Shown here: one piece after another, positions 36,389 through 54,107 of the stretch
How positions within the stretch are numbered: the stretch's first letter is position 1
Layout of the letters: each line of letters starts with the position of its first letter
Assembly: GCA_944392805.1 (NCBI GenBank)
Contig: CALXXZ010000006.1
Coordinates: 21,587 to 85,586 of the forward strand
From: an uncultured Clostridia bacterium
GTDB lineage: Bacteria; Bacillota; Clostridia; TANB77; CAG-508
Direction of reading: 5' to 3'
DNA length: 64,000 nt
Position numbers and translations under genes: made by a program
Notes under the pieces: generated by a model
Told to the model about the DNA's origin: nothing
The model's input: the letters and a program-made list of their open reading frames with translations, nothing else
Database searches by the model: none

Positions 36389-36498
36389 ATGCAAATTCAC
36401 CTTTTATCAAATAAAAATTTTTGGAAAAAATTTTTAATGATTTTTGTAAATATTTAAAATTAAAAAGGAGACAATAATTTTTGATGGAGGTGAAAAAA

Positions 36499-37623: not shown

Positions 37624-37665
37624 TCTTTAAGGTCTATCCTTATATAATATATTTTTGGAGTTAAC

Positions 37666-38753: not shown

Positions 38754-40301
38754 ATGCAAGATGGCACATATGCAATATATCTAAGAAAATCTAGAGAAGA
38801 TATTGAAGCTGAAAAATATGGTGAAGGCGAAACTTTAGCAAGACATGAAAAAATTTTAACTACTTTAGCCGAAAAGCGAAATCTACCCATTTCAAGAATT
38901 TATAAAGAAGTTGTAAGTGGCGAAACAATCAGTGAAAGAAAAGAAATGCAAAAACTTTTAAAAGATGTTGAAAATGAGAAATGGACTGGTATTTTAGTTG
39001 TTGAAGTAGAAAGACTTGCTCGTGGCGATACTGCTGATCAAGGTATAGTTGCAAAAGCCTTCAAATATTCACATACAAAAATTATCACTCCTATGAAAAT
39101 ATATGACCCTGACAATGAATTTGATGAAGAATATTTTGAATTTGGTCTATTTATGTCTAGAAGAGAATATAAAACTATAAATAGACGTTTACAAAGAGGA
39201 CGTGAACTCTCAGTTCAAGAAGGTAAATTTGTTGGAAATATTGCTCCATTTGGCTATGATAGATTAAAACTAAAAGATTCAAAAGGATATACCCTATCTA
39301 TAAATCAAGATGAAGCACTTATAGTTAAAGAAATTTTTAGATTATATGCTTTTGAAAATGCGACTTTAAATTCAGTTGCACAACAGCTAAATGATCTAAA
39401 TTTGAAACCTAGAATTGCAAATGAATGGACAATTTCTTCTGTTAAAGATATTCTTTCTAATCCTACCTATATTGGTAAAATTGCATGGAATAGAAGAAAA
39501 CAAAAAAAGAAAACCAAAAATGGAAATATTATCATTACTAGACCTCGTAACACAGAGTTTTTAATTTATGATGGATTACATGAACCTATTATTGATAATA
39601 AAACTTGGATTATAGTTCAGGAAAAAAGAAAACAAAATACTCCTAAAATAAAACATAGCAATACTATTCAAAATCCATTAGTAGGACTCGTTTTTTGTGA
39701 AAAATGTGGCAAGCTAATGCAAAGGCGACCTTATTCAAAAGATGGTAAGCCTGCAACTTTAATTTGTTCTAATCCAAAGTGTGATAATGTAAGTTCTAAA
39801 CTTTATATTGTTGAAAATAAAATTATCGAATCATTAAAAATATGGCTTAAAAATTTTAAAATAAATTATGATTTTAAAAATAACTCAAGTTTCAATAATG
39901 AAATAATTGAAAAATCTATTGTTTCAACTCAAAAAGAACTAAAAAAAGAAAATTTGAAGCTTGATAAAGTTTATGTGTTTTTAGAAAATGGATTGTATAA
40001 TAGTGATGAGTTTATTAATCGTTCAAAAATTATAAAAAATAATATTGAAAGTTTAGAAATTAAATTAAATAAATATAATTCTTTATTACAACAAAATTTA
40101 GAAGATCAAAAAAATACTACAATACCAAGTTTAGAAAATGTTATGGATTTATATTATAAACTAGAGACTGCTGGAGATAAAAATGCTTTTCTAAAGTGTT
40201 TACTTTCAAAAGTTACATATTTGAAAACAAAAAAGTCTATAAAAAAGGATTCTGACCCAACTAATTTTGAATTACATTTATATCCTAAAATATTAATCTA
40301 A
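38754..40301 (+). CDS. Large serine recombinase (resolvase/invertase catalytic domain + recombinase domain + zinc ribbon + coiled-coil)
   Basis: N-terminus MQDGTYAIYLRKSRED carries the catalytic Ser, and ...VVEVERLARGD is resolvase-like. Zn ribbon CEKCG...CSNPKC and a C-terminal coiled-coil follow. AAAGGAG lies 6 nt before ATG 38754. Confidence 0.85.
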   Translation: MQDGTYAIYLRKSREDIEAEKYGEGETLARHEKILTTLAEKRNLPISRIYKEVVSGETISERKEMQKLLKDVENEKWTGILVVEVERLARGDTADQGIVAKAFKYSHTKIITPMKIYDPDNEFDEEYFEFGLFMSRREYKTINRRLQRGRELSVQEGKFVGNIAPFGYDRLKLKDSKGYTLSINQDEALIVKEIFRLYAFENATLNSVAQQLNDLNLKPRIANEWTISSVKDILSNPTYIGKIAWNRRKQKKKTKNGNIIITRPRNTEFLIYDGLHEPIIDNKTWIIVQEKRKQNTPKIKHSNTIQNPLVGLVFCEKCGKLMQRRPYSKDGKPATLICSNPKCDNVSSKLYIVENKIIESLKIWLKNFKINYDFKNNSSFNNEIIEKSIVSTQKELKKENLKLDKVYVFLENGLYNSDEFINRSKIIKNNIESLEIKLNKYNSLLQQNLEDQKNTTIPSLENVMDLYYKLETAGDKNAFLKCLLSKVTYLKTKKSIKKDSDPTNFELHLYPKILI

Positions 40302-40400
40302 TCACATAAAAATACTACTTTAACAACAATTGTGAAAGAATAAATATGTGCATTTTTAAGCATATTTATTCTTTTGAATATTCTCCCAAATGAAGAGTAT

Positions 40401-40883
40401 TTAATTTTTATCTTTTAATAAAACATTTCTCATTTCAACTATATCATAAAAAGGAATATGTATTCCTTCTTCTGCTAATCTTACTACTCTTAATGCAATA
40501 GTTATAATCTCATCTTTAACTACTTTTGGAATTTCTACATCTATATTTGAATTTATATACTTTTCTGCTATGTATTTTTCAGTAGTTGGAAAAATATTTT
40601 GTATCAAGAATACAGCTTTTTTTCCTAACACATTTCCAAAAACAAAATTATATACCGGTCGATTTCCAATTTTTAATTTTTTATTATCATAGATTTTTTT
40701 GTATTTATCATATTTAGTTGATATAGGAACAAACCATATTATTTCTTTATCTTTTCTATCTCTAAAACAAAAATAGCAAGGTCTTTTATTTCCAGATTCT
40801 TTATTTTTCATTAATTTATATTTTTTAAATATATCAAAAAACTCATCTTTTATAAAATAAAATTTTCCATCTTCTATTACCAT
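40401..40883 (-). CDS. ToxN/AbiQ-like endoribonuclease toxin candidate (type III toxin-antitoxin / abortive infection)
   Basis: 160 aa. The N-terminus KFYFIKDEFFDIFKKY...NKRPCYFCF...VPISTKY...FLIQNIFPTTEKY matches the ToxN/AbiQ pattern (KFY.I..Y...L..FD.KV...RP/NP....PL[ST]S.K; ...MIPI.E). It is immediately preceded by tandem repeats and a terminator in the type III toxin-antitoxin arrangement. Confidence 0.5.
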   Translation of the reverse strand: MVIEDGKFYFIKDEFFDIFKKYKLMKNKESGNKRPCYFCFRDRKDKEIIWFVPISTKYDKYKKIYDNKKLKIGNRPVYNFVFGNVLGKKAVFLIQNIFPTTEKYIAEKYINSNIDVEIPKVVKDEIITIALRVVRLAEEGIHIPFYDIVEMRNVLLKDKN

Positions 40884-40953
40884 TCTTTATCTCCTTTTAT
40901 GAAAATATGGGATCTAACTTAACTTTATAGACCCCATATTTTTACTATACTTA

Positions 40954-41060
40954 ACATTTTTTCACCTGCACATTTATATCTCGCAAGCAGGGTTGCGGTT
41001 CACATTTTTTCACCTATCCATTTATTCGACGCAAATAGGGTTGCGACTCACATTTTTAAT
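40954..41060 (-). ncRNA. Candidate type III antitoxin RNA: 2.2 tandem 48-nt repeats upstream of the ToxN-like gene
   Basis: R1 acattttttcacctgcacatttatatctcgcaagcagggttgcggttc and R2 acattttttcacctatccatttattcgacgcaaatagggttgcgactc are ~75% identical. Each has a conserved cgcaa-N6-ttgcg stem. A partial third repeat follows. A hairpin (aaatatgggatctaac...agaccccatattt, ~40905-40945) separates the repeats from the toxin gene. Confidence 0.5.
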
Positions 41061-41201
41061 TATAGTAGATATAAAATATCTACTACTATTATATTCATTA
41101 TACACACTTTTTATTAATATTTCAAGATTTATTTACAAATTAATTGAAAAAATTTTGGAAATTCACTAAATATGTTTTAATGTCTCTAGCTATTGACAAC
41201 A

Positions 41202-41408
41202 TCATGATACCCATTCTTCAGTACCAATATCATTTAATATAGCTTTTGCATTTTGGTCAGGCATACCAAATCTTTGAGACAAATATCTTAAAGAAGCCGC
41301 AAGTTCACCATCAGGACCTCCATATTGAGAAATTATTACTTTTGCAAGACGAGGGTCTGTGCATTTAATATTAACCGGATATTGTAGCATTTTATTATAA
41401 GTCCACAT
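41202..41408 (-). pseudogene. cotJC: Spore coat protein CotJC, N-terminal fragment (65 native codons + 3 element-encoded codons), with native ribosome-binding site
   Basis: MWTYNKMLQYPVNIKCTDPRLAKVIISQYGGPDGELAASLRYLSQRFGMPDQNAKAILNDIGTEE matches the CotJC N-terminus (B. subtilis MWVYEKKLQYPVKVS...LLTDIGTEE). It is followed by WVS-stop from the insertion. AAGGGGGAA lies 8 nt upstream of the ATG. Confidence 0.8.
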
Positions 41409-41472
41409 TTAAAAATTCCCCCTTTCCCAAGGCCACCCTTGGTTCAATATGGAGGAATTTTTTATAATTGTT

Positions 41473-43057
41473 TCATGCAGAAATATCAAATTTATACTTT
41501 ATATTGACATTTCTATCATCTATAACAATTCTATCAATTAACTTAAAAGCTAAACTTACATTTTCATCATTCAATTCATTAAGGTCTAAAATTTCTTTTA
41601 TTAAATCTCTATTATTTTTTCTTACATTAGCACTCTCTATTTTCTTTATTTCATATCTTTTTATCTCAATTTCTAATTGTTGTTTTTGACTTTCATATTT
41701 TTTTATAAGGTTTGAAAAAGTATCTTGTGAGATTATTTTAGCTATTTTATCTTCATATAAGTTACTTATTAATTTATTAACTTCTCGTTTTTTATTTTGA
41801 ATATTCATAATATCATTTTCATCATTTTCTTTATTTTGGATACCGTTTAAATTGCAAATCTGAAATATTTAAGAATTTTTGTATATTATTTTTTAATGAC
41901 CTTCTAACGATTTCTATTAATTCATCTTCTCTTATGTGGACACCTTCGCAAAAGTTTTTTCCATATTTTTTATAATTTGAACACACACATCTAAAATATC
42001 TGCCATGATTTTTATTATATGTAATTTTACTACCACATTTACAATAAACTAAGCCTGTTAATAAATGTCTTTTTCTATTAGAATAATTCCATTCATTTGT
42101 CTGTTTTTCTAGCATTTCTTGTACAGTATTATAAACTGCTCTACTTATTATAGCAGGATAATTATTTTCTACTATCACTTGTTTATCTGGAGATACTTTT
42201 TCAGTTTTTTGTATCTTATAATTTATTTTTTTAGATTTCAGTTGAATTAAATCTCCCACATAGCTTCTATCTCTCAATATCTTATTAATAATTGTAGAAT
42301 TCCATTTATATGTACAATTCTGTTTTGCATTTGGATTATAATAATTTGTTGTGTCTTGCTTATGTTGTAATGGTGTTTTTATTCCCCACTCATTAAACTT
42401 ATTTGCAATTTGTGTTTTTGAATTTCCTGACATATATAAATCAAAAATCTTTCTTACATTATCAGCAACTTCTTCATCTATTAATATATTATTTTTATTG
42501 TGTATATCTTTTTTCAAGCCATATGGTAAAAATGGTTTTATACATTCTCCTGCATTTGCTTTTGTAGTAATTACTGTTCTTACTTTATTTGAAATATCTT
42601 TTGCATACATATCATTAAATACTGCTTTAAACGGTGTTATATCGCTACTAAAATTATTTATATCAAATGTATCTATATTATCATTGACTGCGATATATCT
42701 TACTCTTTTTTCTGGAAAGTATTTCTCTAAAAATCGTCCTGTTTCTATGTAATCCCTTCCTAATCTTGATAAGTCTTTTGTAATAACTAAATTGATTATT
42801 CCATTTTCTATGTCTTTTATCATTCTCTGAAAAGCTGGTCTATTAAAATTTGTTCCAGTATAGCCATCGTCTGAATAAATGTCTATTAAATTCCATTTCA
42901 TTTTTAATACGACATTTTTTAAGAATTTAATCTGATTTTCAATACTTTCTGATTGACTTTTATATTTTGCTTCTTTCTCATCTTCTCTTGATAGCCTTAC
43001 ATATATGGCCACTTTCCATGTACCTTCTTCTACTAAATAGTTATCTGACTCATACAT
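41473..43057 (-). pseudogene. Second large serine recombinase, interrupted by a stop plus +1 frameshift (408-aa + 111-aa ORFs); probably inactivated
   Basis: 43057..41831 encodes the catalytic domain (AIYVRLSREDEKEAKY...), the recombinase domain and a zinc ribbon (CKCGSK...CVCSNYKKYGKNFC). 41808..41473 encodes the C-terminal coiled-coil expected in the same protein. The two are out of frame and 22 nt apart. The gene ends 64 bp from the cotJC ATG. Confidence 0.65.
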
Positions 43058-43457
43058 ACTTCCCTCCTATCTTGAGTCTATAACTACTTTTCTATTGTTC
43101 TTGAAATAAAAAAATAATTATTTTCATCAATCCAACTTTGAATTAAGTCCAATAATTTCTTCCCATCTTTTGTATATGTTTCTGTTATATTTTCATTCAA
43201 TGTAATCACCTCAATACAGTATATGCATTGGCAGTAAAAAATAGTTAAGAAATGGTTTCTTAGCTATTTTTTTGAATTGAATATAATATTTATGAATATA
43301 TTTTATATTAATTTTTTGATTATGTCTACTCTATTTTTTTACCTTTTTTTATCTTTATGTTATTTTCTGCCAAAATTTCCTATAATATTCAAGGTTGAAT
43401 TTTTAGTTTTTTATTGATACAATTCCAAAAAATAAAATTTTTAAAGGAGATATTGTT

Positions 43458-44003
43458 TTGGAAGAACTAATAAAAAATACATTGAATGGTGATAAGCATT
43501 CTTTTGAAGTTTTAATTGATTCTGTAGAAAGCGACTTATATCGTGTTGCACAAGCTAAACTTAGTAATATTGATGATATAAATGATGCTATTCAAGAAAC
43601 AATTACTAAAGCTTATTCTAAACTACATACTTTAAAGAAATCGAAATATTTTAGAACTTGGATTATAAAAATTTTGATTAATGAATGTAATGTTATTTAC
43701 AGAAAGAAGTATAAGCAAGCTAAAATTTTTAATAAATTATCTATTTCTAAAATTACTGATGAGGTTACTAATCCTTTTAATATTGTGGAAGATAAAATTG
43801 ATTTTGATATTTTACTTAAACATTTAAACGAAAAAGAACAATTAATTTTAGCTTTATATTTTAATAGTAAATTTATTCCTGATGAAATATCTGATATTTT
43901 GGGCATTAATGTAAATACTGTTAAAAGTATAATTTATAGAGCTAAAGAAAAACTTAAAAAATTTGTGGAAAAGGAGGAATTAGATAATGAATCAAGAAAA
44001 TAA
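43458..44003 (+). CDS. ECF-type sigma-70 family RNA polymerase sigma factor (paralog 1 of 3)
   Basis: 181 aa. Region 2 (DDINDAIQETITKAYSKL...WIIKILINECN) and region 4 (ISDILGINVNTVKSIIYRAKEKL) are present. TTG start with AAAGGAGA ribosome-binding site. Confidence 0.7.
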   Translation: MEELIKNTLNGDKHSFEVLIDSVESDLYRVAQAKLSNIDDINDAIQETITKAYSKLHTLKKSKYFRTWIIKILINECNVIYRKKYKQAKIFNKLSISKITDEVTNPFNIVEDKIDFDILLKHLNEKEQLILALYFNSKFIPDEISDILGINVNTVKSIIYRAKEKLKKFVEKEELDNESRK

Positions 44004-45045
44004 TGATAACTTAGATAAATTTTTATTTGATGCATATGAAAAAAATAAAGATATTCCTCTTTCTACTCAGAATATTATTGATAATACTATTGATAATTTA
44101 TTTGCTGAGAAAAATGTTAAACATAAAAAATCTTTTAATTTTGTACTAAAAAGAGTTGCTGTTTTGGTAATTTCACTTAGTGTCGTTACAGCTTCTACCG
44201 TTTTTGCTAAGGATATTATTAATTTCTTTACTTCGATTTTTACTAATAGCAATAAAGGCGTAGATACTGCTGTTGAAAATGGCTATGTGCAAAATGTGGA
44301 TATGGATTTTATTGAAGATAATAATTTGGGTGTTAAAGTTGATTATGTGCTTATGGATGACCACAATCTTAATATTTCATTTGTATATAAATACTTGGGT
44401 GATGATGTTTCTCAAATTACTGGGTTGAATTATATGGATTTAACTATTAAGGATGAAAATGAGAATGTTTTATATAGGTCTTCTAAAGATAATCAAAATG
44501 ATAATATGGTAAGTAATATTACAAAATACACAAACAATCAACAAATTATAGATAACACTACAATTAGAAGTTCTTTATTAGCTGCTTCTAATAATTTTCC
44601 AAAATCGGAAATGTTGTATATTTCAATAAATAATATATCTTTAAATAGTAATGATGAACTTATAAATGTTAATGGTAATTGGAATTTCTCAATAAATTTA
44701 GCTGATAAATTTATATATAGAACTAGTTATAAATATAATTGTAGTGATAATAAATATATTAACAATATAGAAACTTTACTTACAGACACTTCTTTAAAGA
44801 TCACTTTACAATTAAATACACCTTTTAATAAAAATATGATTTATTTGTACAATTCTATTATTTTAAAAGACGTTGATAATAAAGTATATTCTTATACTGA
44901 AATGTCAAGTAAAAATACCTCTGATTCAACTAGTTCAATTACATTATTTTATCCAATTACAATTTATGATACAAATATTGATAAATTATTTTTACATATT
45001 GATTTAGATACAGATAAAAGTATTGATATAGAATTATTAAAATGA
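43987..45045 (+). CDS. Putative anti-sigma factor: short cytoplasmic N-terminus, single transmembrane helix, large Asn/Ser-rich extracytoplasmic domain
   Basis: 352 aa. It overlaps the sigma gene by 17 nt. Transmembrane helix RVAVLVISLSVVTASTVFA. A terminator follows at 45050-45075 (gaggcatcaccaagatgcctctttt). Confidence 0.45.
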   Translation: MNQENNDNLDKFLFDAYEKNKDIPLSTQNIIDNTIDNLFAEKNVKHKKSFNFVLKRVAVLVISLSVVTASTVFAKDIINFFTSIFTNSNKGVDTAVENGYVQNVDMDFIEDNNLGVKVDYVLMDDHNLNISFVYKYLGDDVSQITGLNYMDLTIKDENENVLYRSSKDNQNDNMVSNITKYTNNQQIIDNTTIRSSLLAASNNFPKSEMLYISINNISLNSNDELINVNGNWNFSINLADKFIYRTSYKYNCSDNKYINNIETLLTDTSLKITLQLNTPFNKNMIYLYNSIILKDVDNKVYSYTEMSSKNTSDSTSSITLFYPITIYDTNIDKLFLHIDLDTDKSIDIELLK

Positions 45046-45134
45046 GAGGCATCACCAAGATGCCTCTTTTACAAGAAAATGATTCAATCAAATTAAATTA
45101 TTTACAGCTTCTCATTTAAATCTTTAGACGCATT

Positions 45135-45671
45135 TCAGCCCCATGTATCGAAATACATACATACTCTTAAATTAGAACTGCTACCAGTTACAAGGTAATA
45201 CTTGAAATAATATGTCCTATTAGGGACAATCTTTACATTAGGTACTGTTATTGCAGTACCATCCGCTGTTGCTGTAGCAATAACTAAACAATTATTATTG
45301 TAATCCCACAGCTCCGCAGAAACTTGTTTATTTGGATAGGAATTTCCATCCGCTCCAATTACCTCAAGGGTAAAATTGAGATAATTGCCACTATATTTTC
45401 TATCAGCACCACGGTAGTAGTTTCCTTTCATCGTAAAACATGACTGTATTAAATAGGTTCCTACACCATTTTCATCGACACTTTCCGGTGTCAACTCCAT
45501 TTCGTACGTTGTCCGTGTCTTTCCATTATCCAGTTTTTCGACTGAAACAATTTTTCCATTTGGATTTTCATTGTCAGCCTCGGCTGCAAGAGATACCATA
45601 GAAAAATTAGAAAAGCCCATCAACATAGCCATTACAAAAGCAACAATCCGATTTCTTTTTTTGGTCAACAT
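45135..45671 (-). CDS. Secreted protein of unknown function with clearly higher GC than its surroundings (likely horizontally acquired)
   Basis: 178 aa. Signal peptide MLTKKRNRIVAFVMAMLMGFSNFSMVSLAAEA. The coding sequence is roughly 38-40% GC against a ~25% background, with codon usage using C/G third positions. Confidence 0.5.
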   Translation of the reverse strand: MLTKKRNRIVAFVMAMLMGFSNFSMVSLAAEADNENPNGKIVSVEKLDNGKTRTTYEMELTPESVDENGVGTYLIQSCFTMKGNYYRGADRKYSGNYLNFTLEVIGADGNSYPNKQVSAELWDYNNNCLVIATATADGTAITVPNVKIVPNRTYYFKYYLVTGSSSNLRVCMYFDTWG

Positions 45672-45948
45672 ACATTTTCCTCCTTATTCTAGACCCAATT
45701 AAATCATTTTCCTGCTAAACCAATAAGTTACAGTTTGAAATTTATCTTAAACTTAACTATTGATTTCAAGTTATTACTTGTTTTGTACAGTTTCGTACAT
45801 TTCTTGGTAATTTTAGCACAAAAAGTTACAAAAAATAAAAAAAGGTAAAAAAAGATAAATATTTTTTACTTTTTTTCGACATTTTTTTAATATTTTGCAT
45901 TCGAATATCATTTTTTCGCATCTAATGTTTGGGAGATGGAAGGAAAAA

Positions 45949-46668
45949 ATGTTAAATTTACTTATTATTGATAAAGATGTTAATCATTCTATGAAATTAC
46001 TTAATGAATTTTCAAAAAATGCTGAAATTAAAGTATATAATGTTACTAGCACATTATTAGATGGAATTAAACTTTTAAATACTGGTATTATAGACATAAC
46101 TATAATAAATCTTAATTGTACAATTGATGAAATTACTAATGCTTTTAAACTAATTTCGAAATCATATATTGAAAAATACAACAAATCTATGATTGTATTG
46201 TCTAGTAAGGTTAGCAAATTGACTTCAAATGATTTTGTATACAGTTTTATTGATGATACTGAAGATATTTCAAAAATTTATATTAAAACTTGTGAAATAG
46301 TTGAAAACAAGTTTTATAAAATAAATAAAATTGATTTACTTACTAAGATAAATAAAGAATTAGAATATATTGGTTACAATATGTCCTATAATGGAACAAA
46401 ATACTTATCTGAATGTATTGCGCTAATTTATAGTAGTCATGATTATAGTGAAAATTTGAACAAAAACATTTATCCTGTTATTGCTAAAAAATATAATAAA
46501 ACTATCAATAATGTTAAGTGTAGTATCACTTGTGCAACTACTTCTATGTTTTATGATTGTGATGAAACTAGATTAAAAAATTATTTTAATTTTTATACTG
46601 TTATTAAGCCAAAACCTAAAGTCGTTATTTATACGATATTGAATAAAATTTATAATATAAAGTGCTAG
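45949..46668 (+). CDS. Spo0A-like protein: degenerate receiver domain (phospho-acceptor Asp replaced by Asn) + Spo0A C-terminal DNA-binding domain
   Basis: The C-terminal ...NIYPVIAKKYNKTINNVKCSITCATTSMF aligns to the Spo0A_C helix-turn-helix region ([26 protein letters not shown]). The N-terminal ~110 aa have a receiver-like pattern (IIDKD...ITIINLN...MIVLSS) but Asn sits at the Asp56 position. The start was chosen at 45949 after GGAAGGA. Confidence 0.5.
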   Translation: MLNLLIIDKDVNHSMKLLNEFSKNAEIKVYNVTSTLLDGIKLLNTGIIDITIINLNCTIDEITNAFKLISKSYIEKYNKSMIVLSSKVSKLTSNDFVYSFIDDTEDISKIYIKTCEIVENKFYKINKIDLLTKINKELEYIGYNMSYNGTKYLSECIALIYSSHDYSENLNKNIYPVIAKKYNKTINNVKCSITCATTSMFYDCDETRLKNYFNFYTVIKPKPKVVIYTILNKIYNIKC

Positions 46669-46747
46669 TACAAAAAATAGAAGAATATCAATAGTTAGAA
46701 AAAACTATTGATATTCTTCTTTAATAATCATGGATAATTGTATAAAT

Positions 46748-47755
46748 TTAAAAATAAAATCCAACACACAAATTTTCTTTAAATTCATTACTTAATTCTA
46801 TTTGATTTAGTTTTACATTCATGTTATATGATGATATTTCCATATTTGAATATGTATTATAAATATAATCTTGTACTTTTTCATTATTACATCTAGTTTG
46901 GTCTAAATAAACCCTATATTCATTTTCTATATATTGTATATCAAAAATACTCATTGAATAATCTATTTTATCTTGTACTCTAACAATTCTAATAAAATCT
47001 TCTTTATTATTTTTTGTATTTTCTACAAATTGTTCTATTCTAAATTTATTATCAGAAATCACTTCCGAATTATAAATTACAACACAATTATCTAAAACGG
47101 CTTGTTCTTTTGAATAATCTTTTGGAAGTTCCTCTAATGGTACATAACCATCTGATTTAGGTATTTTTTTTGCTCTATCAACATGAATCTCATCTCTATC
47201 TAATGTATTACTAATTTTTACTGACAAAATTTCTTTTTGGCTCTCATTTTCATTATCTCTATCTATTTCTACATATAATATTTTGTCATCAGTTTCTATA
47301 TTAGAAACATAAATACCAGGCATATATGGACTTGTTGATATTATAATTAGCAAAAAGTTATCTTTAAAATCTTCTTCTGTCATTTCAATTAAATTACTCA
47401 TGTTTTCTTTATATTTTAAATAATCATTAAAATTAGTTATTTTCTTATAATAAAATCTATTCATATATTCCATATCTTCTTTATAATCATAACTATAATT
47501 TGATACTGCAGTTTTTTGCGTAAAATATTCATATGCTGTTGTAAGTCCATATACTAATCCTGAAGTCCCTAAAAGTACTAATATTATTGTGATAGTACTT
47601 GTTAATAATTTTCTTATTTTATAATTGATTTCATTCTTTTGCTTTGTCTTTAATGTATAATCAATCCTATGTTCAATCTGTTGTGGTATTATAGTGTCTT
47701 TTTTACTTAAATCTTTTAATACTTCTTCAATTTCTTTCATACAATTCACCTCCAT
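46748..47755 (-). CDS. Putative anti-sigma factor (single transmembrane helix, extracytoplasmic domain), partner of sigma paralog 2
   Basis: 335 aa. Transmembrane helix LLTSTITIILVLLGTSGLVYGL. It overlaps the sigma gene by 29 nt. Confidence 0.4.
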   Translation of the reverse strand: MEVNCMKEIEEVLKDLSKKDTIIPQQIEHRIDYTLKTKQKNEINYKIRKLLTSTITIILVLLGTSGLVYGLTTAYEYFTQKTAVSNYSYDYKEDMEYMNRFYYKKITNFNDYLKYKENMSNLIEMTEEDFKDNFLLIIISTSPYMPGIYVSNIETDDKILYVEIDRDNENESQKEILSVKISNTLDRDEIHVDRAKKIPKSDGYVPLEELPKDYSKEQAVLDNCVVIYNSEVISDNKFRIEQFVENTKNNKEDFIRIVRVQDKIDYSMSIFDIQYIENEYRVYLDQTRCNNEKVQDYIYNTYSNMEISSYNMNVKLNQIELSNEFKENLCVGFYF

Positions 47756-48275
47756 ATTCTTGTCTTAATTTATCTTTCGCCCTTCTTATTTTAGTTTTGA
47801 TAGTATTTTCATTTTTCCTCATAATATGACCTATCTCTTTTGTTGTATATCCTGAATAATAGTATAAAGTTAAAATTGTTTGTTCATCAGGTGATAAATT
47901 TTTTATAAACATTTCAAAGTCTATTTTTTCTAAATTATCTTCTACTTCAATATACTTGTCCATTTCATTTTCTTCAATTGAAATATTGTATTTTTTCTTT
48001 TTATTATAAATATTATTGCATTTACTTATTAGTATTTTTATTAACCATGGTTTAAATACTTTATCATTTTTTAGTTTTCGGATATTTTTATAACAAGTTA
48101 ATATTGTATCTTGTATTGCATCTGCTATATCATCCATATCATTAAGTCTTGTCCTTGCTATACAGTACAAGTCACTTTTTATAGAATTTATTAATTCATC
48201 AAATGCTTCATCATCTTCTTTGGCTTTTTTCACTAATTCTTCCAATTTTAGTTCCTCCATTTTTAATATGTACAT
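47727..48275 (-). CDS. ECF-type sigma-70 family sigma factor (paralog 2 of 3)
   Basis: 182 aa. It shares DDI.DAIQ.T...WLIKILI.KCN and region-4 motifs with the other two paralogs. It begins 8 bp after the cotJB stop. Confidence 0.7.
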   Translation of the reverse strand: MYILKMEELKLEELVKKAKEDDEAFDELINSIKSDLYCIARTRLNDMDDIADAIQDTILTCYKNIRKLKNDKVFKPWLIKILISKCNNIYNKKKKYNISIEENEMDKYIEVEDNLEKIDFEMFIKNLSPDEQTILTLYYYSGYTTKEIGHIMRKNENTIKTKIRRAKDKLRQEYGGELYERN

Positions 48276-48283
48276 ATTTATAC

Positions 48284-48676
48284 TTATAAGACCGCCAATA
48301 GGTTATTATTAGTTTCAAAAATATCAAATTTTACATCTAAACAAAACGAACCCCATGGTTCTTCAAGCCATCTCCATTTATTACATGGAAATTGAATAGT
48401 CAATGGTCCATAAACTTTTTGATATTTATCTGTTAATTCTCTGTATTCTTTACTATATTTTCTATGCAAGCATAAAGCTTTTTCATCTTCAGGATGAGTG
48501 TCTAGATATAAAGCCAATTCGGTAATAGCAAAATTCAAGCATTTTATTCTTTCCATCATTTCTTCTCTAGTTTGATCATAATTGCAATCATTATTTGGCA
48601 TAGGATTATTAGTCATATACATTGAATAATTATTATTCATCATACAATTGCAATTTCTATTATCCATTTCGTTCAT
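48284..48676 (-). CDS. cotJB: Spore coat protein CotJB
   Basis: 130 aa. FAITELALYLDTHPEDEKALCLHRKYSKEYRELTDKYQKVYGPLT matches the CotJB domain (..L.LYLDTHP.D..AL..Y.....EL...Y...YGPL). An Asn/Met-rich N-terminal extension is present. Confidence 0.75.
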   Translation of the reverse strand: MNEMDNRNCNCMMNNNYSMYMTNNPMPNNDCNYDQTREEMMERIKCLNFAITELALYLDTHPEDEKALCLHRKYSKEYRELTDKYQKVYGPLTIQFPCNKWRWLEEPWGSFCLDVKFDIFETNNNLLAVL

Positions 48677-49035
48677 TATCTATTACACCCCTCTCCTATT
48701 TTATTTGTTGCCGCTATGAATTCATTAGTTCTCATAGATTGACATGGTTCATATGGACTGACTAATTCTGGGAAAATCGTTCCCATTTTTAATCCAACAC
48801 ATGGTTTAAATGTTTTATCCATATATTGCATTGGTACATAACTTTGTGCTAACATTGGATTTTCTGGGAATACACTCATTTCGTATTCTTCGTCAAATCC
48901 ACATTCACATTTGTCGTTATTACATTCTTCATATGCACATGGACATACATTATCACACTTATCTTCAATTAAATTCATATTTGAATTTTGTGTATTATTC
49001 ATGCAATAGCATTTTTTGTATCTGCGTCTTAACAT
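48676..49035 (-). CDS. cotJA: Spore coat-associated protein CotJA
   Basis: 119 aa. The C-terminal MLAQSYVPMQYMDKTFKPCVGLKMGTIFPELVSPYEP matches the CotJA signature (LA.AYVPWQ....Y....AL..GT.FPEL..PY). A possible sigma-E/K-type promoter (AC-N17-CATATAAT) lies ~30 nt upstream of the ribosome-binding site. Confidence 0.65.
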   Translation of the reverse strand: MLRRRYKKCYCMNNTQNSNMNLIEDKCDNVCPCAYEECNNDKCECGFDEEYEMSVFPENPMLAQSYVPMQYMDKTFKPCVGLKMGTIFPELVSPYEPCQSMRTNEFIAATNKIGEGCNR

Positions 49036-49128
49036 TTTTGTTCCTCCTTTTTTTATTTTACTACATTATATGACAGAATTATTAAAAGAGTTAACATTTT
49101 CAAACGCTAACTCTTTTTAAGTAAATAT

Positions 49129-49425
49129 TTATTTAAATCTTTCTATTATTAAATTAAAACTATTAACCATTAATCTATATAAATTATAAAATAACCATAT
49201 AGTAAAAATTCCTAAAACTATTTTTAAAATTATATTTAGAACATCTGCAAAATCTAATTTTTTCTTTTTATCATTTTTTGTTTTTTCATTAAGTTCTTCT
49301 AAATTTTTGGTTATATCTCTTCCTTTATATCTTTCTAATCTTTTATCATCTGCTTCTTTTACATATCTTTCGATTTCTTCCCATTCTTCTTTATTTCCCA
49401 TTTGTATCTCCCCTTTTAGTAACAT
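49129..49425 (-). CDS. Small protein with charged coiled N-terminal region and C-terminal transmembrane helix, unknown function
   Basis: 98-aa ORF. Hydrophobic segment ILKIVLGIFTIWLFYNLY. No recognised motif. Confidence 0.3.
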   Translation of the reverse strand: MLLKGEIQMGNKEEWEEIERYVKEADDKRLERYKGRDITKNLEELNEKTKNDKKKKLDFADVLNIILKIVLGIFTIWLFYNLYRLMVNSFNLIIERFK

Positions 49426-49487
49426 TTATATCATATTTTTCAAAAAAAAGAAAGCTTAAATTTTTACATTTAAACTTTCTTTTTAAT

Positions 49488-51044
49488 TTATTTTAAATTA
49501 ATAATTAATGGGTCCATTTCATAATATATTTCTCCCCCAGTATCTTCTTGACCTTCAATCGGATTTCTAACTGTTTCTATTGGTACTATTTTTATATAAT
49601 CTGTATCAGTATTTTCTATAAGTAAATATTCTATAGTTTCCCATATGGCATTATTATATTTTTTATTAGGCAAATCATGTATATCATAATCTTCTCTTGT
49701 TCCGTCACTATATATTAGTGTTTTCTTGTTACTTGTACCAAAACAAGATAATTCTTTACCATTTGCATCATATACCTTATATTGTCTTGTTATTGGCAAA
49801 TGTTCTACATTAGGGTCTGCATATCTATTTGCAAAAGCATTAGATGATTGCTTACTTGCTGAATGATTTATCTTTACAATTGTCTGTATTGGTGAAATTA
49901 CAACCTTTTCTACTTTTTGTGTTATATTTCTAAATTCTGATTTTATTTCTGGATCTTCTATTACTTTACTGTCATTTAAAACTAAATCCTTAGATACATT
50001 TACTTCAAAATCTAATGGTAAATCTTTTACGTACTTTTCAGGTAAATACATATTGCTACTATCCTCTCTTGCAAACCACTGACAATCACTTAACCAATTA
50101 TCGCCTAAACCTTGCCATGCTGGCATATTTATCAATTTATTATTTTTTAATGTAATTTTAAAGTTTTCTTTACCTTTTAATTCATCATCTGTTAATGAAT
50201 ACATATTATAAATTTTATATTCGTAATCACTTATTTTTTCGACTTTTTGCCAATTTCTAACATAAAATGGTTCATCATCTATGTATATGCTTGCATACCA
50301 AGTAGTGTTTGGGTTAAATTTGTCATAATTATATACTCCACCTTTTTGCTCTGTGTTTAGTGCTAGACCTATTCTAAATCCGGTGCTTTTCCTTTCTTCT
50401 AATTGCTTATCATACATTTTTATTTTTTCTAAATATTCTTGATAATATTTAGAATTTTTTATTTCTTCTTCTGTTACTTCTATCTGGTCTAATATATTAT
50501 TTATTTCTTCATCAGTTTCATTTGTGAAATATCTTCCATATTTATCTGATTGAATCCTTTTTATCATTTTTTGTTTAGCTTTTTCCTTATCCTCTTGAAT
50601 TTGGTTATAAAATTCTTCTGTGTAAGCAGTTTCTCCAAGTCTTAGATTATTATAATCTTCTTGACTTAGTTTGACATTAAATTCTAAAATTGTTATTCCT
50701 TCACTACACATTGTAGAGGTTAATTCTACACTCGTATCTCCAAATGCAACAACTTGATTTTCTACTGGTTGTTTATATTCTATATATTTATCTGAAAATT
50801 TTATACCTAGCCAATCCATAGCAGGAATGCCCTCAATTTTCCCACCTGATACTGCATATACACTAAAAGTTCCTATTAATGTTGTTATAGTTGATATTAT
50901 GACTATAATAGCTTGTTTTATATAATTTTTTAACTTATGCTTTTTATTTATATATAAAGCTTTTTTTATGGTTCTTTCATAAGTATATGGCTCTTCTATT
51001 TCTTTAGATAACGCACTTTTTATCATTTTATCTAATACATCCAT
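49488..51044 (-). CDS. Putative anti-sigma factor / membrane-anchored extracytoplasmic protein, partner of sigma paralog 3
   Basis: 518 aa. N-terminal short cytoplasmic segment, transmembrane helix AIIVIISTITTLIGTFSVYAV, and a large outside domain. Its start lies 2 nt after the sigma gene stop. Confidence 0.4.
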   Translation of the reverse strand: MDVLDKMIKSALSKEIEEPYTYERTIKKALYINKKHKLKNYIKQAIIVIISTITTLIGTFSVYAVSGGKIEGIPAMDWLGIKFSDKYIEYKQPVENQVVAFGDTSVELTSTMCSEGITILEFNVKLSQEDYNNLRLGETAYTEEFYNQIQEDKEKAKQKMIKRIQSDKYGRYFTNETDEEINNILDQIEVTEEEIKNSKYYQEYLEKIKMYDKQLEERKSTGFRIGLALNTEQKGGVYNYDKFNPNTTWYASIYIDDEPFYVRNWQKVEKISDYEYKIYNMYSLTDDELKGKENFKITLKNNKLINMPAWQGLGDNWLSDCQWFAREDSSNMYLPEKYVKDLPLDFEVNVSKDLVLNDSKVIEDPEIKSEFRNITQKVEKVVISPIQTIVKINHSASKQSSNAFANRYADPNVEHLPITRQYKVYDANGKELSCFGTSNKKTLIYSDGTREDYDIHDLPNKKYNNAIWETIEYLLIENTDTDYIKIVPIETVRNPIEGQEDTGGEIYYEMDPLIINLK

Positions 51045-51045
51045 A

Positions 51046-51567
51046 TTATTGATTTCCTTTCAAATATTTATTTTTTATTTTATCTTTGCCTCGTTTTAAT
51101 CTTGTTTTTATGGTGTTTTCATTTGTTTTTAATATTTTTGATATTTCTTTTATTGAATAATCTTCTAAGTAAAATAATGTTATTGCTATTCTTTCATCAT
51201 AATTCAAGTCTCTTAAAATTAGATAAAAATCGACATTATCTAATTCTTCATAATTTTCATTTTGAGAATATATATTCTCTAGTTCAGTATCTTCAAAAGA
51301 AATATTCCTTTTTTTATTTTTATTAAAAATTTGATTGCATTTATTTATTAATATTTTTATAATCCATTTTTTATAGGATTCACTTTTGTTTAGTTTTCTT
51401 ATATTTTTAAATGCAATTATCATTGTCTCCTGAACAGCATCTTCTATGTCGTCTTCACAAGATAAACGGCATCTGGCTATTTTATATAAATCTTGTCTTA
51501 TTTCATATATTAATTCTGTAAATGCTTCTTTATCACCTTTTTGGGCTTTTATGACTAGTTCTTCCAT
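51046..51567 (-). CDS. ECF-type sigma-70 family sigma factor (paralog 3 of 3)
   Basis: 173 aa. MEELVIKAQKGDKEAFTELI...EDDIEDAVQETMIIAFKNI...WIIKILINKCN...ISKILKTNENTIKTRLKRGKDKI. GGAGGA ribosome-binding site. Confidence 0.7.
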   Translation of the reverse strand: MEELVIKAQKGDKEAFTELIYEIRQDLYKIARCRLSCEDDIEDAVQETMIIAFKNIRKLNKSESYKKWIIKILINKCNQIFNKNKKRNISFEDTELENIYSQNENYEELDNVDFYLILRDLNYDERIAITLFYLEDYSIKEISKILKTNENTIKTRLKRGKDKIKNKYLKGNQ

Positions 51568-51960
51568 ATTTTCCTCCGTATAATATGCACATATCTTACA
51601 CTTATAAGAGTATAGATATTATTAAAAAAGTTTCATTTATAAAAAAATATGATGTAGATTATGATATTTTAAAATATTTAAAATTATGTTTGATTCATGA
51701 ATTTAGCGAAGTTTATGCTAGTGATATTACATCTAAAGATAATATTTTAAAATAAGAAAAACATTTGTTAGAAGAATCTGCTATAAAGAAATTATTAAAA
51801 TAAACTAATTAAAATGCCATAAAAAATAATACTCAATGCAAAAAATACATTGAATACTATTTTTTATCCTGTTATAATTCTTAAATCTCCAACTTCTAAT
51901 TTTCCTCTTAATTTATTATTTTTCTTAAATATTGTATAACATTATTACAATAAATTCATA

Positions 51961-52500
51961 TTATTTTACAATATACTCCCATCCTGGTTGCCATGATTTT
52001 GTTTTTCTCCAATCATGTTCTATAACATATTCCCAACTTTTGTTTTCAGTTATGACCTGAAATGCTAATTGAGGAGCTTTGTGTGCAACTATTGCAATAT
52101 GTTTTCCATCATAGTTTTGTAATAAAGATTCACAGAAACTTCTAATTCTATTTTCAACATCGATTAGACTTTCTCCATTTGGAAATTTTTCTTGTATATG
52201 TTCTTCATATTTTACTAATGATGACTCTAGTCCATTTAAATCTCCATAATTACATTCTCGTAATCTACTATCTTTTATTATTTCTTTATTATTTTCAAAT
52301 ATATTTTTAGTTGAGTCAATCGCTCTTTTTAAATCTGAACAAAATACTATATCAAATTCATTTATATTTATTTGCTCTTTTAATGCAATACTTTGTTCAA
52401 TTCCTTTTTGTGATAATTCTCCTGGTAACCATCCTGTTGATTTGTGTTCTAAATTATCTATTGTTGTTCCATGCACAAAATATGTTATTTTTACTGCCAT
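51961..52500 (-). CDS. Histidine-phosphatase superfamily protein (PGM-like); the catalytic-loop Arg is replaced (VHG instead of RHG)
   Basis: 179 aa. KITYFVHGTT at the position of the RHG motif. ...LKRAIDST... Last gene of the nine-gene operon. Confidence 0.6.
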   Translation of the reverse strand: MAVKITYFVHGTTIDNLEHKSTGWLPGELSQKGIEQSIALKEQININEFDIVFCSDLKRAIDSTKNIFENNKEIIKDSRLRECNYGDLNGLESSLVKYEEHIQEKFPNGESLIDVENRIRSFCESLLQNYDGKHIAIVAHKAPQLAFQVITENKSWEYVIEHDWRKTKSWQPGWEYIVK

Positions 52501-52517
52501 TTTTAATTCCCTACTTT

Positions 52518-53411
52518 CTAAAATTTATCTACTGGATATACTGTAACATATTCTTCAGTTGCATTTTCTTGATAATATATCCAATCAGAACAATCCTTGC
52601 ATGCTCCTTTATATATATGGTTTCGCAAATCAGAAATTAATTGATCTAATTTTCCATTTTCAACTAGTTTTTTTACAGAATAGTCATAATCTCTTAAATT
52701 TCCTAAAGAATTTCTGGCTAGAAAATCACAACAACAAGTTACAACTTCACAATTACTAAGAATTATTATATTACGTTTTAATCCTTTACACTCTCCTCTT
52801 TCATATGTACTAAGGTCTCTATTTTTAGGATTTATATCCATCTCAATGCTATGTGCTCTATTAGTAAAATTATGAAAAGCAACATTAATACCAAGATTGT
52901 GAAAATATTTGATAAACTCATTTCTATCTAAATTAGCCCCTGTATCTATCATAACAGCTTGAAGTTCAGTTTTAGCATGTGTTTTATCAACATACTTTTT
53001 CAAATTATTCAAATTATTTAAAACATTAGATAAATTGTCTACTCCTCTTATTTGTTTATATACTGTTGGATTTAAAGTTCCAACTGATACAACAATATAA
53101 TTCATACCTGAATCTACAATTTTTTCAATATTTTCTTCATTGAGTAATGCACCATTGGTTGAGATTCTAGTCTTAAGTCCTTTACTATGCATGTATTTTA
53201 CTCTATCGAAAAAGTAAGGATCTACTAGTGGCTCTCCATTAAGATCAAGCCAAATTGGCTTTTTGTGAAATAAATCAATATTTCTATCAACTATTTTATA
53301 AAACTCCTCCATATCCATATGACAATTTCTTGTTCTTTTAACACATATTGGACAAGAATAATTACATTTACTTGTAGTTTCTATATATTTTATAACTATT
53401 TCTTCACTCAT
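52518..53411 (-). CDS. Radical SAM enzyme with C-terminal Cys-rich auxiliary-cluster (twitch/SPASM-like) domain
   Basis: 297 aa. CNYSCPIC (CX3CX2C), the LDLNGEPLV glycine-rich SAM motif, and C-terminal CEVVTCCCDF...GACKDCSDW. Confidence 0.8.
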   Translation of the reverse strand: MSEEIVIKYIETTSKCNYSCPICVKRTRNCHMDMEEFYKIVDRNIDLFHKKPIWLDLNGEPLVDPYFFDRVKYMHSKGLKTRISTNGALLNEENIEKIVDSGMNYIVVSVGTLNPTVYKQIRGVDNLSNVLNNLNNLKKYVDKTHAKTELQAVMIDTGANLDRNEFIKYFHNLGINVAFHNFTNRAHSIEMDINPKNRDLSTYERGECKGLKRNIIILSNCEVVTCCCDFLARNSLGNLRDYDYSVKKLVENGKLDQLISDLRNHIYKGACKDCSDWIYYQENATEEYVTVYPVDKF

Positions 53412-53414
53412 TCT

Positions 53415-54107
53415 TTACTCCTTTATTAAGATATTTATATAATTTATTATTTCATTTATTGCATCTTTTCTACCTTCTTTTAATTTATTACGATCTGTAT
53501 CTGATAATTCCCAAAAATTAATTTTTTTTGGAATATCTGATATTAACAATAATGATACAAATCTATTATTGTTTTCTATTGCTGTTTTTGCACAATAAGT
53601 AGTTTCCATATCCACAACGTCGCAATTTTCTTTTCTTGCAAATTCACAATATTTCTTTTCAATTTTACCAAGTAAACATGGAGAATAACCACATTTTACT
53701 CTCTCTCTTTTTCCTGTCGTATTAATCTTTGTAATTTCACCATACTCATCCTCAGCTAATTCAACTTCTACCAAACTTCCAATTGTATATCTATTGTTTA
53801 AACTTCCAGCTAAACCAAAAAATAAAATATCAGTATTAGTGAATAATTCTATTATATCTTTTGCTGAAATTCCTTGTGGAGATAAGATTAACATTCCTCT
53901 TTTATTTTCTTTATGTAATTTAAAAATACAATTTTCAAAAAAACCATTATCATGTTCTTCTTCAATATCTAAAATTTCACTTAATTTATAAAATGTTGAT
54001 GGCAATGGTGTAATAACTATTATAGCTATATTAATAGGATTATGTCCCAACATAATTCTTCTAATTTCATTTATTTTATCTTTCATTTTAATATTTCTCA
54101 ACTCCAT
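53415..54107 (-). CDS. PNP/UDP-phosphorylase-family nucleosidase (MTA/SAH nucleosidase- or futalosine hydrolase-like)
   Basis: 230 aa. MLILSPQGISAKD...LFFGLAGSL and VVDMETTYCAKTA...VSLLLISDIP align with Pfs motifs (SAGG...AVEMEA...VVRAISD). Confidence 0.55.
   Translation of the reverse strand: MELRNIKMKDKINEIRRIMLGHNPINIAIIVITPLPSTFYKLSEILDIEEEHDNGFFENCIFKLHKENKRGMLILSPQGISAKDIIELFTNTDILFFGLAGSLNNRYTIGSLVEVELAEDEYGEITKINTTGKRERVKCGYSPCLLGKIEKKYCEFARKENCDVVDMETTYCAKTAIENNNRFVSLLLISDIPKKINFWELSDTDRNKLKEGRKDAINEIINYINILIKE

Follow-up and report, generated by a model that had tools for sequence, protein, structure and literature searches.

We analysed the gene for a 239-residue Spo0A-like protein in a 64,000-nucleotide stretch of DNA from an uncultured Clostridia bacterium (contig CALXXZ010000006.1; the whole stretch is hereafter called the window). 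It probably encodes a phosphorylation-independent paralog of Spo0A that is driven by an ECF (extracytoplasmic function) sigma factor, reads a DNA motif of its own, may activate transcription through phased boxes and is carried as cargo on an element inserted in cotJB. An earlier note on this DNA had described an orphan protein with a Spo0A-type C-terminal DNA-binding domain and a receiver-like domain that cannot be phosphorylated, acting as a constitutive or differently controlled binder of Spo0A boxes (0A boxes) that could modulate Spo0A-regulated genes. On the evidence presented below, the protein is more likely to serve as output regulator of a cassette with an ECF sigma factor, and to have a DNA specificity of its own, than to compete for 0A boxes.

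The open reading frame (ORF) starts with the ATG at 45949, with GGGAGATGGAAGG upstream. A Pfam search gave a match to Spo0A_C (PF08769) over residues 134–233 (E = 3.4e-13; 49.9 bits against a cut-off of 25), and two Spo0A C-domains in the PDB, 1fc3 (E = 5.5e-6) and 1lq1 (E = 2.6e-5), were matched by sequence. The score against TIGR02875, the Spo0A equivalog model, was 39.4 bits where the cut-off is 200, suggesting that the protein is a paralog and not the organism's own Spo0A; no second Spo0A_C gene was found in the window. In an AlphaFold2 model built from 69 homologs (mean predicted local distance difference test score 90.6), the N-terminal domain has the order β1-α1-β2-α2-β3-α3-β4-(vestigial α4)-β5, a (βα)5 CheY-like arrangement whose α5 is a long helix (residues 107–140), and this helix leads into a C-terminal domain of five helices. 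Foldseek comparison with the PDB placed the C-domain on DNA-bound Spo0A (1lq1; template modelling (TM) score 0.85, root mean square deviation 1.9 Å, 26% identity), so that both the profile search and the fold bear out a Spo0A-type DNA-binding domain. The whole chain and the N-domain matched the response regulators VraR, LiaR and NarL, and the stand-alone receiver 3crn (TM 0.68). Although the model and the Foldseek matches are those of a receiver, the Pfam search gave no match to Response_reg (PF00072) up to E ≤ 10; thus the receiver proposed earlier escapes the sequence search and appears in the model, suggesting a true receiver fold that has diverged past the reach of the sequence model. The ratio of nonsynonymous to synonymous substitution rates (dN/dS) was 0.19–0.28 overall, 0.35–0.46 for the N-domain and 0.08–0.21 for the C-domain, indicating purifying selection on both domains and therefore a gene that is not decaying.

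The phosphorylation site of this receiver-like domain has been lost. In the translation, the segments IIDKD, IINLN and MIVLSS occupy residues 6–10, 52–56 and 81–86 respectively, and in the model β3 comprises residues 50–54, with Asn54 closing its C-terminal end. Distant relatives that still score with PF00072 have LLDLKMP/ILDLNLP motifs, and in the alignments Asn54 falls in the column of their Asp; the distant family members P0068, P0069, P0072 and P0073 carry this domain. In the 69-sequence alignment the acceptor column held Asn 56 times, Asp five, His four, Tyr twice, and Ser and Lys once each. The acidic pair is D8-K9, its second Asp being mostly Lys in the same alignment, the Thr/Ser position is retained as Ser85, and Asp103 occupies the column of the conserved Lys, a residue that 76 of 125 family members have. 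A row for Bacillus subtilis Spo0A served only as a guide; its D10, D11 and D56 columns agree with the tool alignments, and T84 and K106, which were misaligned, were left unused. Many close relatives have N-x-D, with an Asp two residues on, and the protein here has N-L-N-C-T. An Asp elsewhere that could restore the site was looked for: the β3–α3 loop (LNCT) has none, and there is therefore no nearby Asp to rescue the acceptor; Asp49 precedes β3 and lies on the opposite side of the sheet in the model. The replacement of the phospho-acceptor Asp by Asn was thus confirmed, and so was the predicted lack of phosphorylation, in so far as it concerns the canonical site, which has lost its acceptor Asp, its second metal-binding Asp and its Lys and should not accept phosphate. 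The domain is a pseudo-receiver, that is, a receiver fold without the phosphotransfer residues, kept under selection.

To place the protein in its family, a word-indexed search was made, giving 73 clusters at 90% identity, nearly all of 236–241 residues and with PF08769 only. An exhaustive search of 1.84 billion representatives (50% identity) gave 609 matches with E ≤ 1e-3, of which 342 reached E ≤ 1e-10; the close Asp-less clade is a single 50%-identity cluster. The acceptor position of 125 full-length members is Asp in 87, Asn in 22 and another residue in 16, and the complete set of DD plus acceptor Asp is retained in only 41. Among the genome loci, the window and L001–L006 have Asn or His, and L007–L034 (29–44% identity) keep Asp, some with an apparently complete phosphorylation site. 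The family is one of low-GC bacteria: all 34 loci belong to metagenome-assembled genomes (MAGs) of uncultured gut Clostridia (human, rabbit, mouse, chicken and ruminant). The genes are multi-copy per genome, with at least two in L008, L009, L022, L026 and L027 and in MAGs CAKOXV, CAPYID and CAVFFZ, and some copies lie within 4 kb of each other. A phage or plasmid origin was considered and rejected, as no relative was found by tblastn against INPHARED and PLSDB or in a scan of IMG/VR. The Spo0A_C-only proteins of gut phages in BFVD have 12–23% identity, over the C-domain only.

The surface expected to read DNA differs from that of Spo0A. In the HMMER alignment to 1fc3 and 1lq1, YPVIAKKYNKTINNVKCSITCATTSMF spans the recognition-helix region, and SRVERAIRH of Spo0A is replaced by NNVKCSITC (S210N, R211N, E213K, R214C, R217T and H218C in B. 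subtilis numbering). Of the replaced residues, E213 and R214 reportedly contact bases in the 1lq1 complex. The family carries the motif xNN[IV]K[CS]NI..AT..M in place of the Spo0A residues, and its most conserved stretch is the helix-turn-helix itself, YP..AK.YNK[TS].NN[IV]K.NI..AT..M. Among the 125 full-length members K190 is conserved in 109, N192 in 87, I193 in 118, A196 in 106 and M200 in 113; K190, I193, M200 and C204 are each retained in 86–94%. The SRVERAIRH segment, with the residues that read the 0A box, is conserved from Bacillus to C. difficile (PMC3485338). With the replacement residues conserved throughout the family, the protein seems to have another DNA target, and thus a specificity distinct from 0A boxes, and not to have lost DNA binding.

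Two cysteine residues specific to the family were noticed in the same region. Cys191 (46519–46521), in the recognition helix, is Cys in 65 of the 125 members where Spo0A has Arg, and Cys204 (46558–46560), in the next loop, is Cys in 108 where Spo0A has Gly. Both are present together in 56 members, and a redox or metal switch made of the two is conceivable.

A single perfect 0A box, TTCGACA (TGTCGAA reversed), is present upstream of the gene at 45875–45881. It was rejected as a functional site: the closest relative, L001, has TTAGACA at this position, the other relatives lack the box, and the window holds five perfect boxes, which is the background frequency. The near-matches TTCGAAT and TTCGCAT were likewise discarded, since they belong to the ECF promoter described below. 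With the recognition helix replaced, the replacement motif conserved and the upstream box unconserved, the proposal of the earlier note that the protein binds Spo0A boxes finds no support, nor, by the same evidence, does the suggestion that it could modulate Spo0A-regulated genes.

The description of the gene as an orphan was misleading. Synteny was assessed by tblastn of the window proteins against the 34 loci combined with inspection of ORFs, and revealed a conserved cassette, in which genes for an ECF sigma factor and a DUF4179 anti-sigma factor precede the Spo0A-like gene, often with a divergent gene for a signal-peptide protein of 135–183 residues in between. The sigma factor, the anti-sigma factor or both adjoin the Spo0A-like gene in approximately 22 of the 34 loci, and the two are fused in L008, L009 and L018. 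The four proteins diverge in step: their identities to the window (in the order sigma factor, anti-sigma factor, secreted protein, Spo0A-like protein) were 82, 77, 69 and 74% in L001, 52, 52, 55 and 58% in L002, and 47, 51, 49 and 54% in L006. DUF4179 is found in RsiV and BAS1627, two anti-sigma factors of the ECF30 group, and contains the signal-peptidase site; binding of the ligand exposes this site, and the anti-sigma factor is cleaved (PMC6066255). The divergent secreted protein has 88 homolog clusters; it matched no Pfam or NCBIfam family, and a fold search gave generic β-sandwich matches (CBM, GOLD and Ena2A; TM ≤ 0.61).

Upstream of the Spo0A-like gene, alignment revealed an ECF-type promoter ending 23 nucleotides before the ATG. 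In both close and distant loci such a promoter stands 17–30 nucleotides 5′ of the start, the relatives having TG[AC]A[AC]C, a T-rich spacer and [CG/TA]TCTAAT. When the regular expression TG[AC]A[AC]C-N18-21-TCT[AT]A was scanned over 401 kb, 36 matches were obtained, of which 17 lay within 260 nucleotides (mostly 17–30) upstream of a Spo0A-like start, with 0.34 expected; the others were mostly before ECF sigma genes, including those at 47727 and 51046 of the window. The motif with its T-tract fits promoters of the B. subtilis σV type, for which an autoregulatory GCAAAC/CGTC and a σV-responsive tGAAACnTTTt have been described (PMC5758882). A scan of the + strand upstream of the gene for σ70-type promoters, which performs at chance level in such AT-rich DNA, found none. 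Thus, given the conserved sigma/anti-sigma cassette and the ECF-type promoter, the 'differently controlled' half of the earlier description is the probable one and the 'constitutive' half less so, and quite likely an ECF30-type sigma factor, kept in check by the DUF4179 anti-sigma factor, transcribes the gene.

The candidate binding sites are boxes, AAAG[GA]TAAAAA, phased at 10 bp, which lie between the two divergent genes. Relative to the divergent promoter they occupy approximately −36 to −57, and the ECF −35 element follows approximately 35 bp downstream of them. In most loci the boxes stand 22–24 nucleotides upstream of TATAAT or an extended −10, i.e. in the −35 position, as in σA promoters that depend on an activator. 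At spoIIG, Spo0A acts as an activator from boxes overlapping the −35 region. The window contains boxes at only two sites (45831–45859 and 43338–43356), both of them promoters of the cassette, and tandem boxes were present in 13 of 13 loci with the divergent signal-peptide gene compared with none of 16 others. We propose them as a candidate site of the Spo0A-like protein because it is the only transcription factor always encoded beside them.

Several other elements were seen around these promoters. The inverted repeat in the leader of the secreted-protein gene gave a folding z of −1.4 on the single sequence, which is not significant; in the alignment four of 18 pairs were compensatory, all of them inner, with an invariant outer stem, and a loose palindrome regular expression was not discriminating. 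These data fit a structured RNA as well as a DNA operator. The arms of the terminator-like hairpin downstream of the Spo0A-like gene, ATCAATAGTT and AACTATTGAT, resemble this repeat. An Rfam scan of 32000–49500 gave nothing relevant. Leaders of ECF sigma operons share a palindrome, ATATGT[AG]CATAT, that follows the ECF promoter and precedes the ribosome-binding site (window 48240–48270 and 51580–51600; ECF leaders of L001, L005, L025 and L033), and related ATGTAC repeats occur just 3′ of the secreted-protein −10 in the window and L001 (approximately 45780–45800); this palindrome may be the operator of a repressor.

The following pathway would account for these observations. An extracytoplasmic cue would trigger proteolysis of the RsiV-type DUF4179 anti-sigma factor, and the freed ECF sigma factor would transcribe the Spo0A-like gene from TGCATT...CATCTAAT. 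The level of the protein, and not its phosphorylation, would set its activity, so that it would be active without phosphate and its amount would be the control variable. This is a known design, as pseudo-receiver regulators such as CmrT are controlled via their synthesis (PMC12632262). The protein would bind its own motif, for which the AAAGRTAAAAA boxes rather than 0A boxes are the best candidate, and would act as an activator at box-bearing σA-type promoters, like Spo0A at spoIIG. It may in this way activate the divergent secreted-protein gene and, here, also the ECF sigma operon via the phased boxes, which would create a loop, feed-forward or positive, with the anti-sigma factor as its gate. 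Because members of the family that contain the acceptor Asp share the promoter type, the data suggest that control shifted from kinase to sigma factor before the site was lost in this clade.

The coat genes, recombinases and extra sigma factors noted earlier were all found (CotJA and CotJB, two large serine recombinases and three ECF sigma factors), and the probable horizontally acquired block consists of two nested serine-recombinase intervening elements, one in cotJB and one in cotJC. The junctions of element B, in cotJB, are GAAGAACCATGG/GGTTCG (48347–48364) and AAGGGTGG/CCTTGGG (41426–41440), the second of which continues as AAGGGTGG/CCTTGGGAAAGGGGGAATTTTTAA-ATG(cotJC). They are imperfect palindromes centred on TG, GAACCATGGGGTTC among them, the form expected of serine-recombinase sites. 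Joining them restores the end of cotJB as ...EEPW/PWERGNF followed by the stop codon. The cargo of element B consists of its recombinase, the Spo0A-like cassette and a second ECF sigma/membrane-protein pair whose own ECF promoter is at 48317–48287 (− strand). The recombinase has Resolvase, Recombinase and Zn_ribbon_recom domains with XisF/CcrB-like matches; it is frameshifted near CCAAAATAAAG, with the same split in the independent assemblies L035 and L036 and in L001, and is a single 525-residue ORF in L006. Element A is flanked by the 12-bp direct repeats GGTACTGAAGAA (41214–41225) and GGTACTAAAGAA (32658–32669), and joining its ends gives cotJC as ...DIGTEE/LAHLEM... when compared with the intact L006 gene; the 68-residue manganese-catalase fragment at 41202–41408 is the first 65 codons of cotJC. 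The predicted healed junctions are GAAGAACCATGGCCTTGGGAAAGG for cotJB and GATATTGGTACTGAAGAATTAGCTCAC for cotJC. Element A carries an apparently intact 520-residue serine recombinase (38739–40301), a CptIN toxin, a sortase, a β-helix protein and two ABC transporter genes. In L006 the core of element B is found between cotJB and an intact cotJC of 209 residues; there its orientation with respect to the operon is reversed, and the extra pair is missing. Linkage of the cassette to coat genes and recombinases was confined to the window's own contigs, L001 and L006, most loci having no recombinase or coat gene; mobile linkage therefore holds for these few loci and not for the family, and the coat-gene link reflects the insertion site of a mobile element and not a shared function.

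The comparison of the window with L006 gave some further observations. From recombinase to Spo0A-like gene the core is colinear (window 41489–46599, L006 3565–8663) with the flanking cotJ genes reversed, and despite the inversion the 10–20 bp next to the junctions are identical. The cotJB junction of the window also holds a remnant resembling the 3′ end of the recombinase (DVKFDIF).

Several points weigh against the pathway proposed above. The family as a whole is not phosphorylation-independent, since many members keep the Asp. The promoter of the window, TGCATT and CATCTAAT, is a weaker match, its −35 element departs from the family consensus, no ECF-type autoregulatory promoter was found upstream of the ECF sigma gene at 43458, and, with three ECF sigma factors encoded nearby, the cognate one could be any of them. 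The boxes are linked to the protein by association, and binding to them is predicted; as A/T tracts they could equally act as an UP-like element. Fourteen family loci have neither the boxes nor the divergent gene, so that the boxes cannot be the only target of the family. The 20-mer box sequence occurs on at least 120 metagenome contigs from all biomes, one of which, among those listed, has a Spo0A-like gene; this search says little about specificity because the 20-mer is A-rich. Finally, with the recombinase frameshifted, excision of element B may no longer occur.

Four other explanations were weighed against an ECF-driven regulator with its own motif. The protein might mimic Spo0A in a constitutively active form, competing with it on 0A boxes or standing in for it, and so modulate the host sporulation regulon from a mobile element. 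Mimicry of host Spo0A at 0A boxes is an idea proposed for truncated phage spo0A genes, and phage-borne Spo0A_C-only proteins exist; a retained Spo0A_C fold without a phospho-acceptor, carried on a mobile element in a sporulation operon behind one perfect TGTCGAA box, would suit such a role. However, the six substitutions in the recognition helix, including E213K and R214C, with their conserved replacement motif, the lack of conservation of the box in L001 and its background frequency, the position of most of the family away from recombinases or coat genes, and the absence of relatives from the phage, plasmid and IMG/VR collections searched make a mimic unlikely. More radically, the protein might not bind DNA at all and might act through protein contacts, either as a decoy heterodimer with Spo0A or by contacting a sigma factor or RNA polymerase. 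The Spo0A C-domain contacts sigma factors, a pseudo-receiver could pair with a true receiver, and DNA binding of the protein remains a prediction. Yet the helix-turn-helix is the most conserved stretch of the family, as would be expected of a DNA-reading surface, and the C-domain superposes on DNA-bound Spo0A at 1.9 Å; we therefore consider action through protein contacts very improbable.

The receiver-like domain might still be the control point, through a partner protein, a small ligand, phosphorylation of another residue or oxidation of C191/C204, with the ECF sigma factor as one input only. RitR offers a precedent, being under redox control through a cysteine. Purifying selection on the N-domain with D8 and S85 kept, and the presence of C204 in most members and of both cysteine residues in nearly half, are consistent with this, and such mechanisms are known in pseudo-receivers (PMC12632262). 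A constitutive dimerization domain would show the same selection, however, the gene neighbourhood points to no partner or ligand, and α4 is nearly absent from the model, which would alter the α4-β5-α5 signalling face; there is thus a small chance that control lies in this domain. The location of the gene suggests yet another role, in which the protein would regulate maintenance or excision of the element by controlling the recombinase or a directionality factor for timed exit of element B from cotJB. It is cargo on the interrupting element, 3 kb from a recombinase gene, and intervening elements need timed excision. In most loci, however, the cassette has no recombinase or coat gene beside it, neither boxes nor an ECF promoter were found near the recombinase gene, and this gene is frameshifted in the lineage, so that a role in excision seems very doubtful. 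We thus retain the ECF-driven regulator with its own motif as the preferred reading.

Table 1. Coordinates of the Spo0A-like gene, its cis elements, the ECF sigma cassette and the interrupted cotJ operon in the window
Feature	Position	Strand	Basis or remark
Spo0A-like coding sequence	45949-46668	+	239 aa (amino acids); stop (46666-46668) included
Pseudo-receiver of Spo0A-like protein	~aa 1-105 (45949-46263)	+	AlphaFold2 model
Long α5/linker helix of Spo0A-like protein	aa 107-140	+	AlphaFold2 model
Spo0A_C domain of Spo0A-like protein	aa 134-233 (46348-46647)	+	Pfam PF08769
Asn54 codon AAT, phospho-acceptor position, end of β3	46108-46110	+	Alignments and model
Recognition helix, aa 186-200, INNVKCSITCATTSM	46504-46548	+	Family-specific motif, differs from Spo0A
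ECF (σV/ECF30)-type promoter: TGCATT (-35), T-rich spacer, CGCATCTAAT (-10)	45896-45926	+	Upstream alignment
10-bp-phased boxes AAAG[GA]TAAAAA (two or three copies)	45831-45861	.	Read on + strand
Extended -10 TGTGCTAAAAT, σA-type promoter of secreted-protein gene	45810-45820	-	Without -35 hexamer
Second tandem boxes TTTACCTTTTTTTATCTTT (43338-43356) with TATAAT (43381-43386) 24 nucleotides on	43338-43386	+	Upstream of ECF sigma operon
Conserved inverted repeat, TCAATAAG...CTTATTGA type	45721-45764	-	Leader of secreted-protein gene
Terminator-like hairpin, 18-bp stem	46679-46720	.	Between convergent Spo0A-like and 46748 genes
ECF sigma factor; best NCBIfam TIGR02954 and SigV	43458-44003	+	NCBIfam search
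Membrane anti-sigma factor, DUF4179	43987-45045	+	Pfam
Divergent 178-aa protein, signal peptide, β-sandwich	45135-45671	-	Co-inherited with Spo0A-like gene
Element B, ~6.9 kb	41433-48352	.	Inserted 8 codons before cotJB end
Large serine recombinase of element B, split 408-aa and 111-aa ORFs	41473-43057	-	Frameshift
Second ECF sigma (47727-48275) and overlapping membrane protein (46748-47755)	46748-48317	-	Absent from L006 element
cotJA (48676-49035) and cotJB 5′ part (48353-48676)	48353-49035	-	
cotJB 3′ end (41409-41435) and cotJC first 65 codons (41214-41408)	41214-41435	-	
cotJC 3′ part	32241-32669	-	aa 62-204 of intact L006 CotJC, 90% identity
Element A, ~8.5 kb, cotJC codon ~65	32670-41213	.	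12-bp direct repeats flank

Other genes of the window give the setting of the two elements. A third ECF sigma gene (51046–51567) and the gene for a 518-residue anti-sigma-like protein with a weak DUF5643 match lie together at 49488–51635 (− strand), with their own promoter TGAAAC...TCTTA (51635–51605), just outside element B and upstream of cotJA. The toxin of element A belongs to the CptIN type III family (NF047359, 155 bits against a cut-off of 90) and is preceded on the same strand by a 48-nucleotide tandem repeat of 2.2 copies (40954–41057), which is probably its RNA antitoxin; toxin and repeat (together 40401–41057) would then be an addiction module inside the element. The window also encodes SpoIVA, CysS and NrdD, showing that it is chromosomal DNA of a spore-former, and the full-length SpoIVA (5051–6529, + strand; three Pfam domains, E down to 1e-120) confirms the host as an endospore former. 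A gene cluster at 51961–55285 (− strand) encodes a histidine phosphatase, a PNP_UDP_1-like protein and two radical SAM proteins, one of them of the radical SAM/SPASM kind. A further gene encodes a 1436-residue protein with BcrAD_BadFG and DUF2229 (CoA-enzyme activase) domains, which is not PolC (20666–24976, − strand).

In a bolder and less likely reading, the Spo0A DNA-binding fold, commonly regarded as peculiar to Spo0A, may have been re-used across this family as the output arm of ECF pathways. The portable four-gene cassette would then be a two-tier cascade with feedback, whose receiver site was repeatedly lost as control left the kinase. The secreted protein could be the ligand of the anti-sigma factor, the extracellular part of which comprises approximately residues 134–352, and this would make a self-inducing extracellular loop, and if element B excises the mother cell would lose the cassette from its chromosome. 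The family would offer a natural series for a response regulator passing from kinase to sigma-factor control, and the ECF promoter and phased boxes are candidate cis elements of a cassette in abundant uncultured gut spore-formers. The Spo0A_C domain is said to "uniquely distinguishes Spo0A" (PMC6136694), and surveys use it as a sporulation signature; a paralog family with a different helix, in which approximately 30% of clusters lack the acceptor Asp, would lead to false Spo0A calls and miscounted spo0A paralogs. The elements in cotJB and cotJC extend the short list of interrupted sporulation genes, on which cotJC was already recorded, and show signalling genes among the cargo of such elements.

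The kinds of system involved, namely pseudo-receiver regulators, Spo0A paralogs and intervening elements, are known, and the present combination is a variant of them. Like Spo0A (1lq1, 1fc3; TIGR02875, COG5801), the protein combines a receiver fold with the Spo0A_C helix-turn-helix and keeps YP.IAKKYN before the recognition helix. Unlike Spo0A, it has D-K for DD, N54 for the acceptor and no conserved Lys, NNVKCSITC for SRVERAIRH, and a score of 39 bits against the 200-bit cut-off; it is also shorter, with 239 residues and a continuous helical linker, and has an ECF-type promoter and another gene neighbourhood. Truncated spo0A homologs have been described in human-gut phages (Schwartz et al. 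2023, PMC10294663; BFVD, e.g. A0A8S5N4T4), and these too are Spo0A_C proteins on mobile DNA of gut spore-formers, beyond phosphorelay control. They lack a receiver (99–163 residues), whereas the protein here keeps a pseudo-receiver under selection. It shares with RitR, CmrT, HP1043 and ChxR (PMC12632262, PMC4395418) a dead receiver joined to a DNA-binding output domain, but its output domain is Spo0A_C and its proposed controller is an ECF sigma factor and not a two-component system; the review on pseudo-receivers (PMC12632262) makes no mention of Spo0A.

The cassette resembles σV-RsiV/ECF30 pairs in its SigV-like ECF sigma factor, its DUF4179 anti-sigma factor and its tGAAAC-T-tract...CGTC-type promoters. 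It differs from them in that the regulon seems to include a dedicated Spo0A-fold regulator, giving a two-tier cascade, that the −35 of the window clade is TGCAYY and that the sigma gene has no obvious autoregulatory ECF promoter. Intervening elements in sporulation genes are known from skin/sigK, SPβ/spsM, gin/gerE and yin/yabG, and a skin-like element is known in cotJC of Laceyella sacchari. As with skin, SPβ, gin and yin, a large serine recombinase is encoded, a mother-cell sporulation gene is hit, the junction repeats are short and joining restores the ORF. In contrast with them, two nested elements occupy one operon here, the cargo is a signalling cassette and not a prophage, the recombinase of element B is frameshifted, and excision is predicted.

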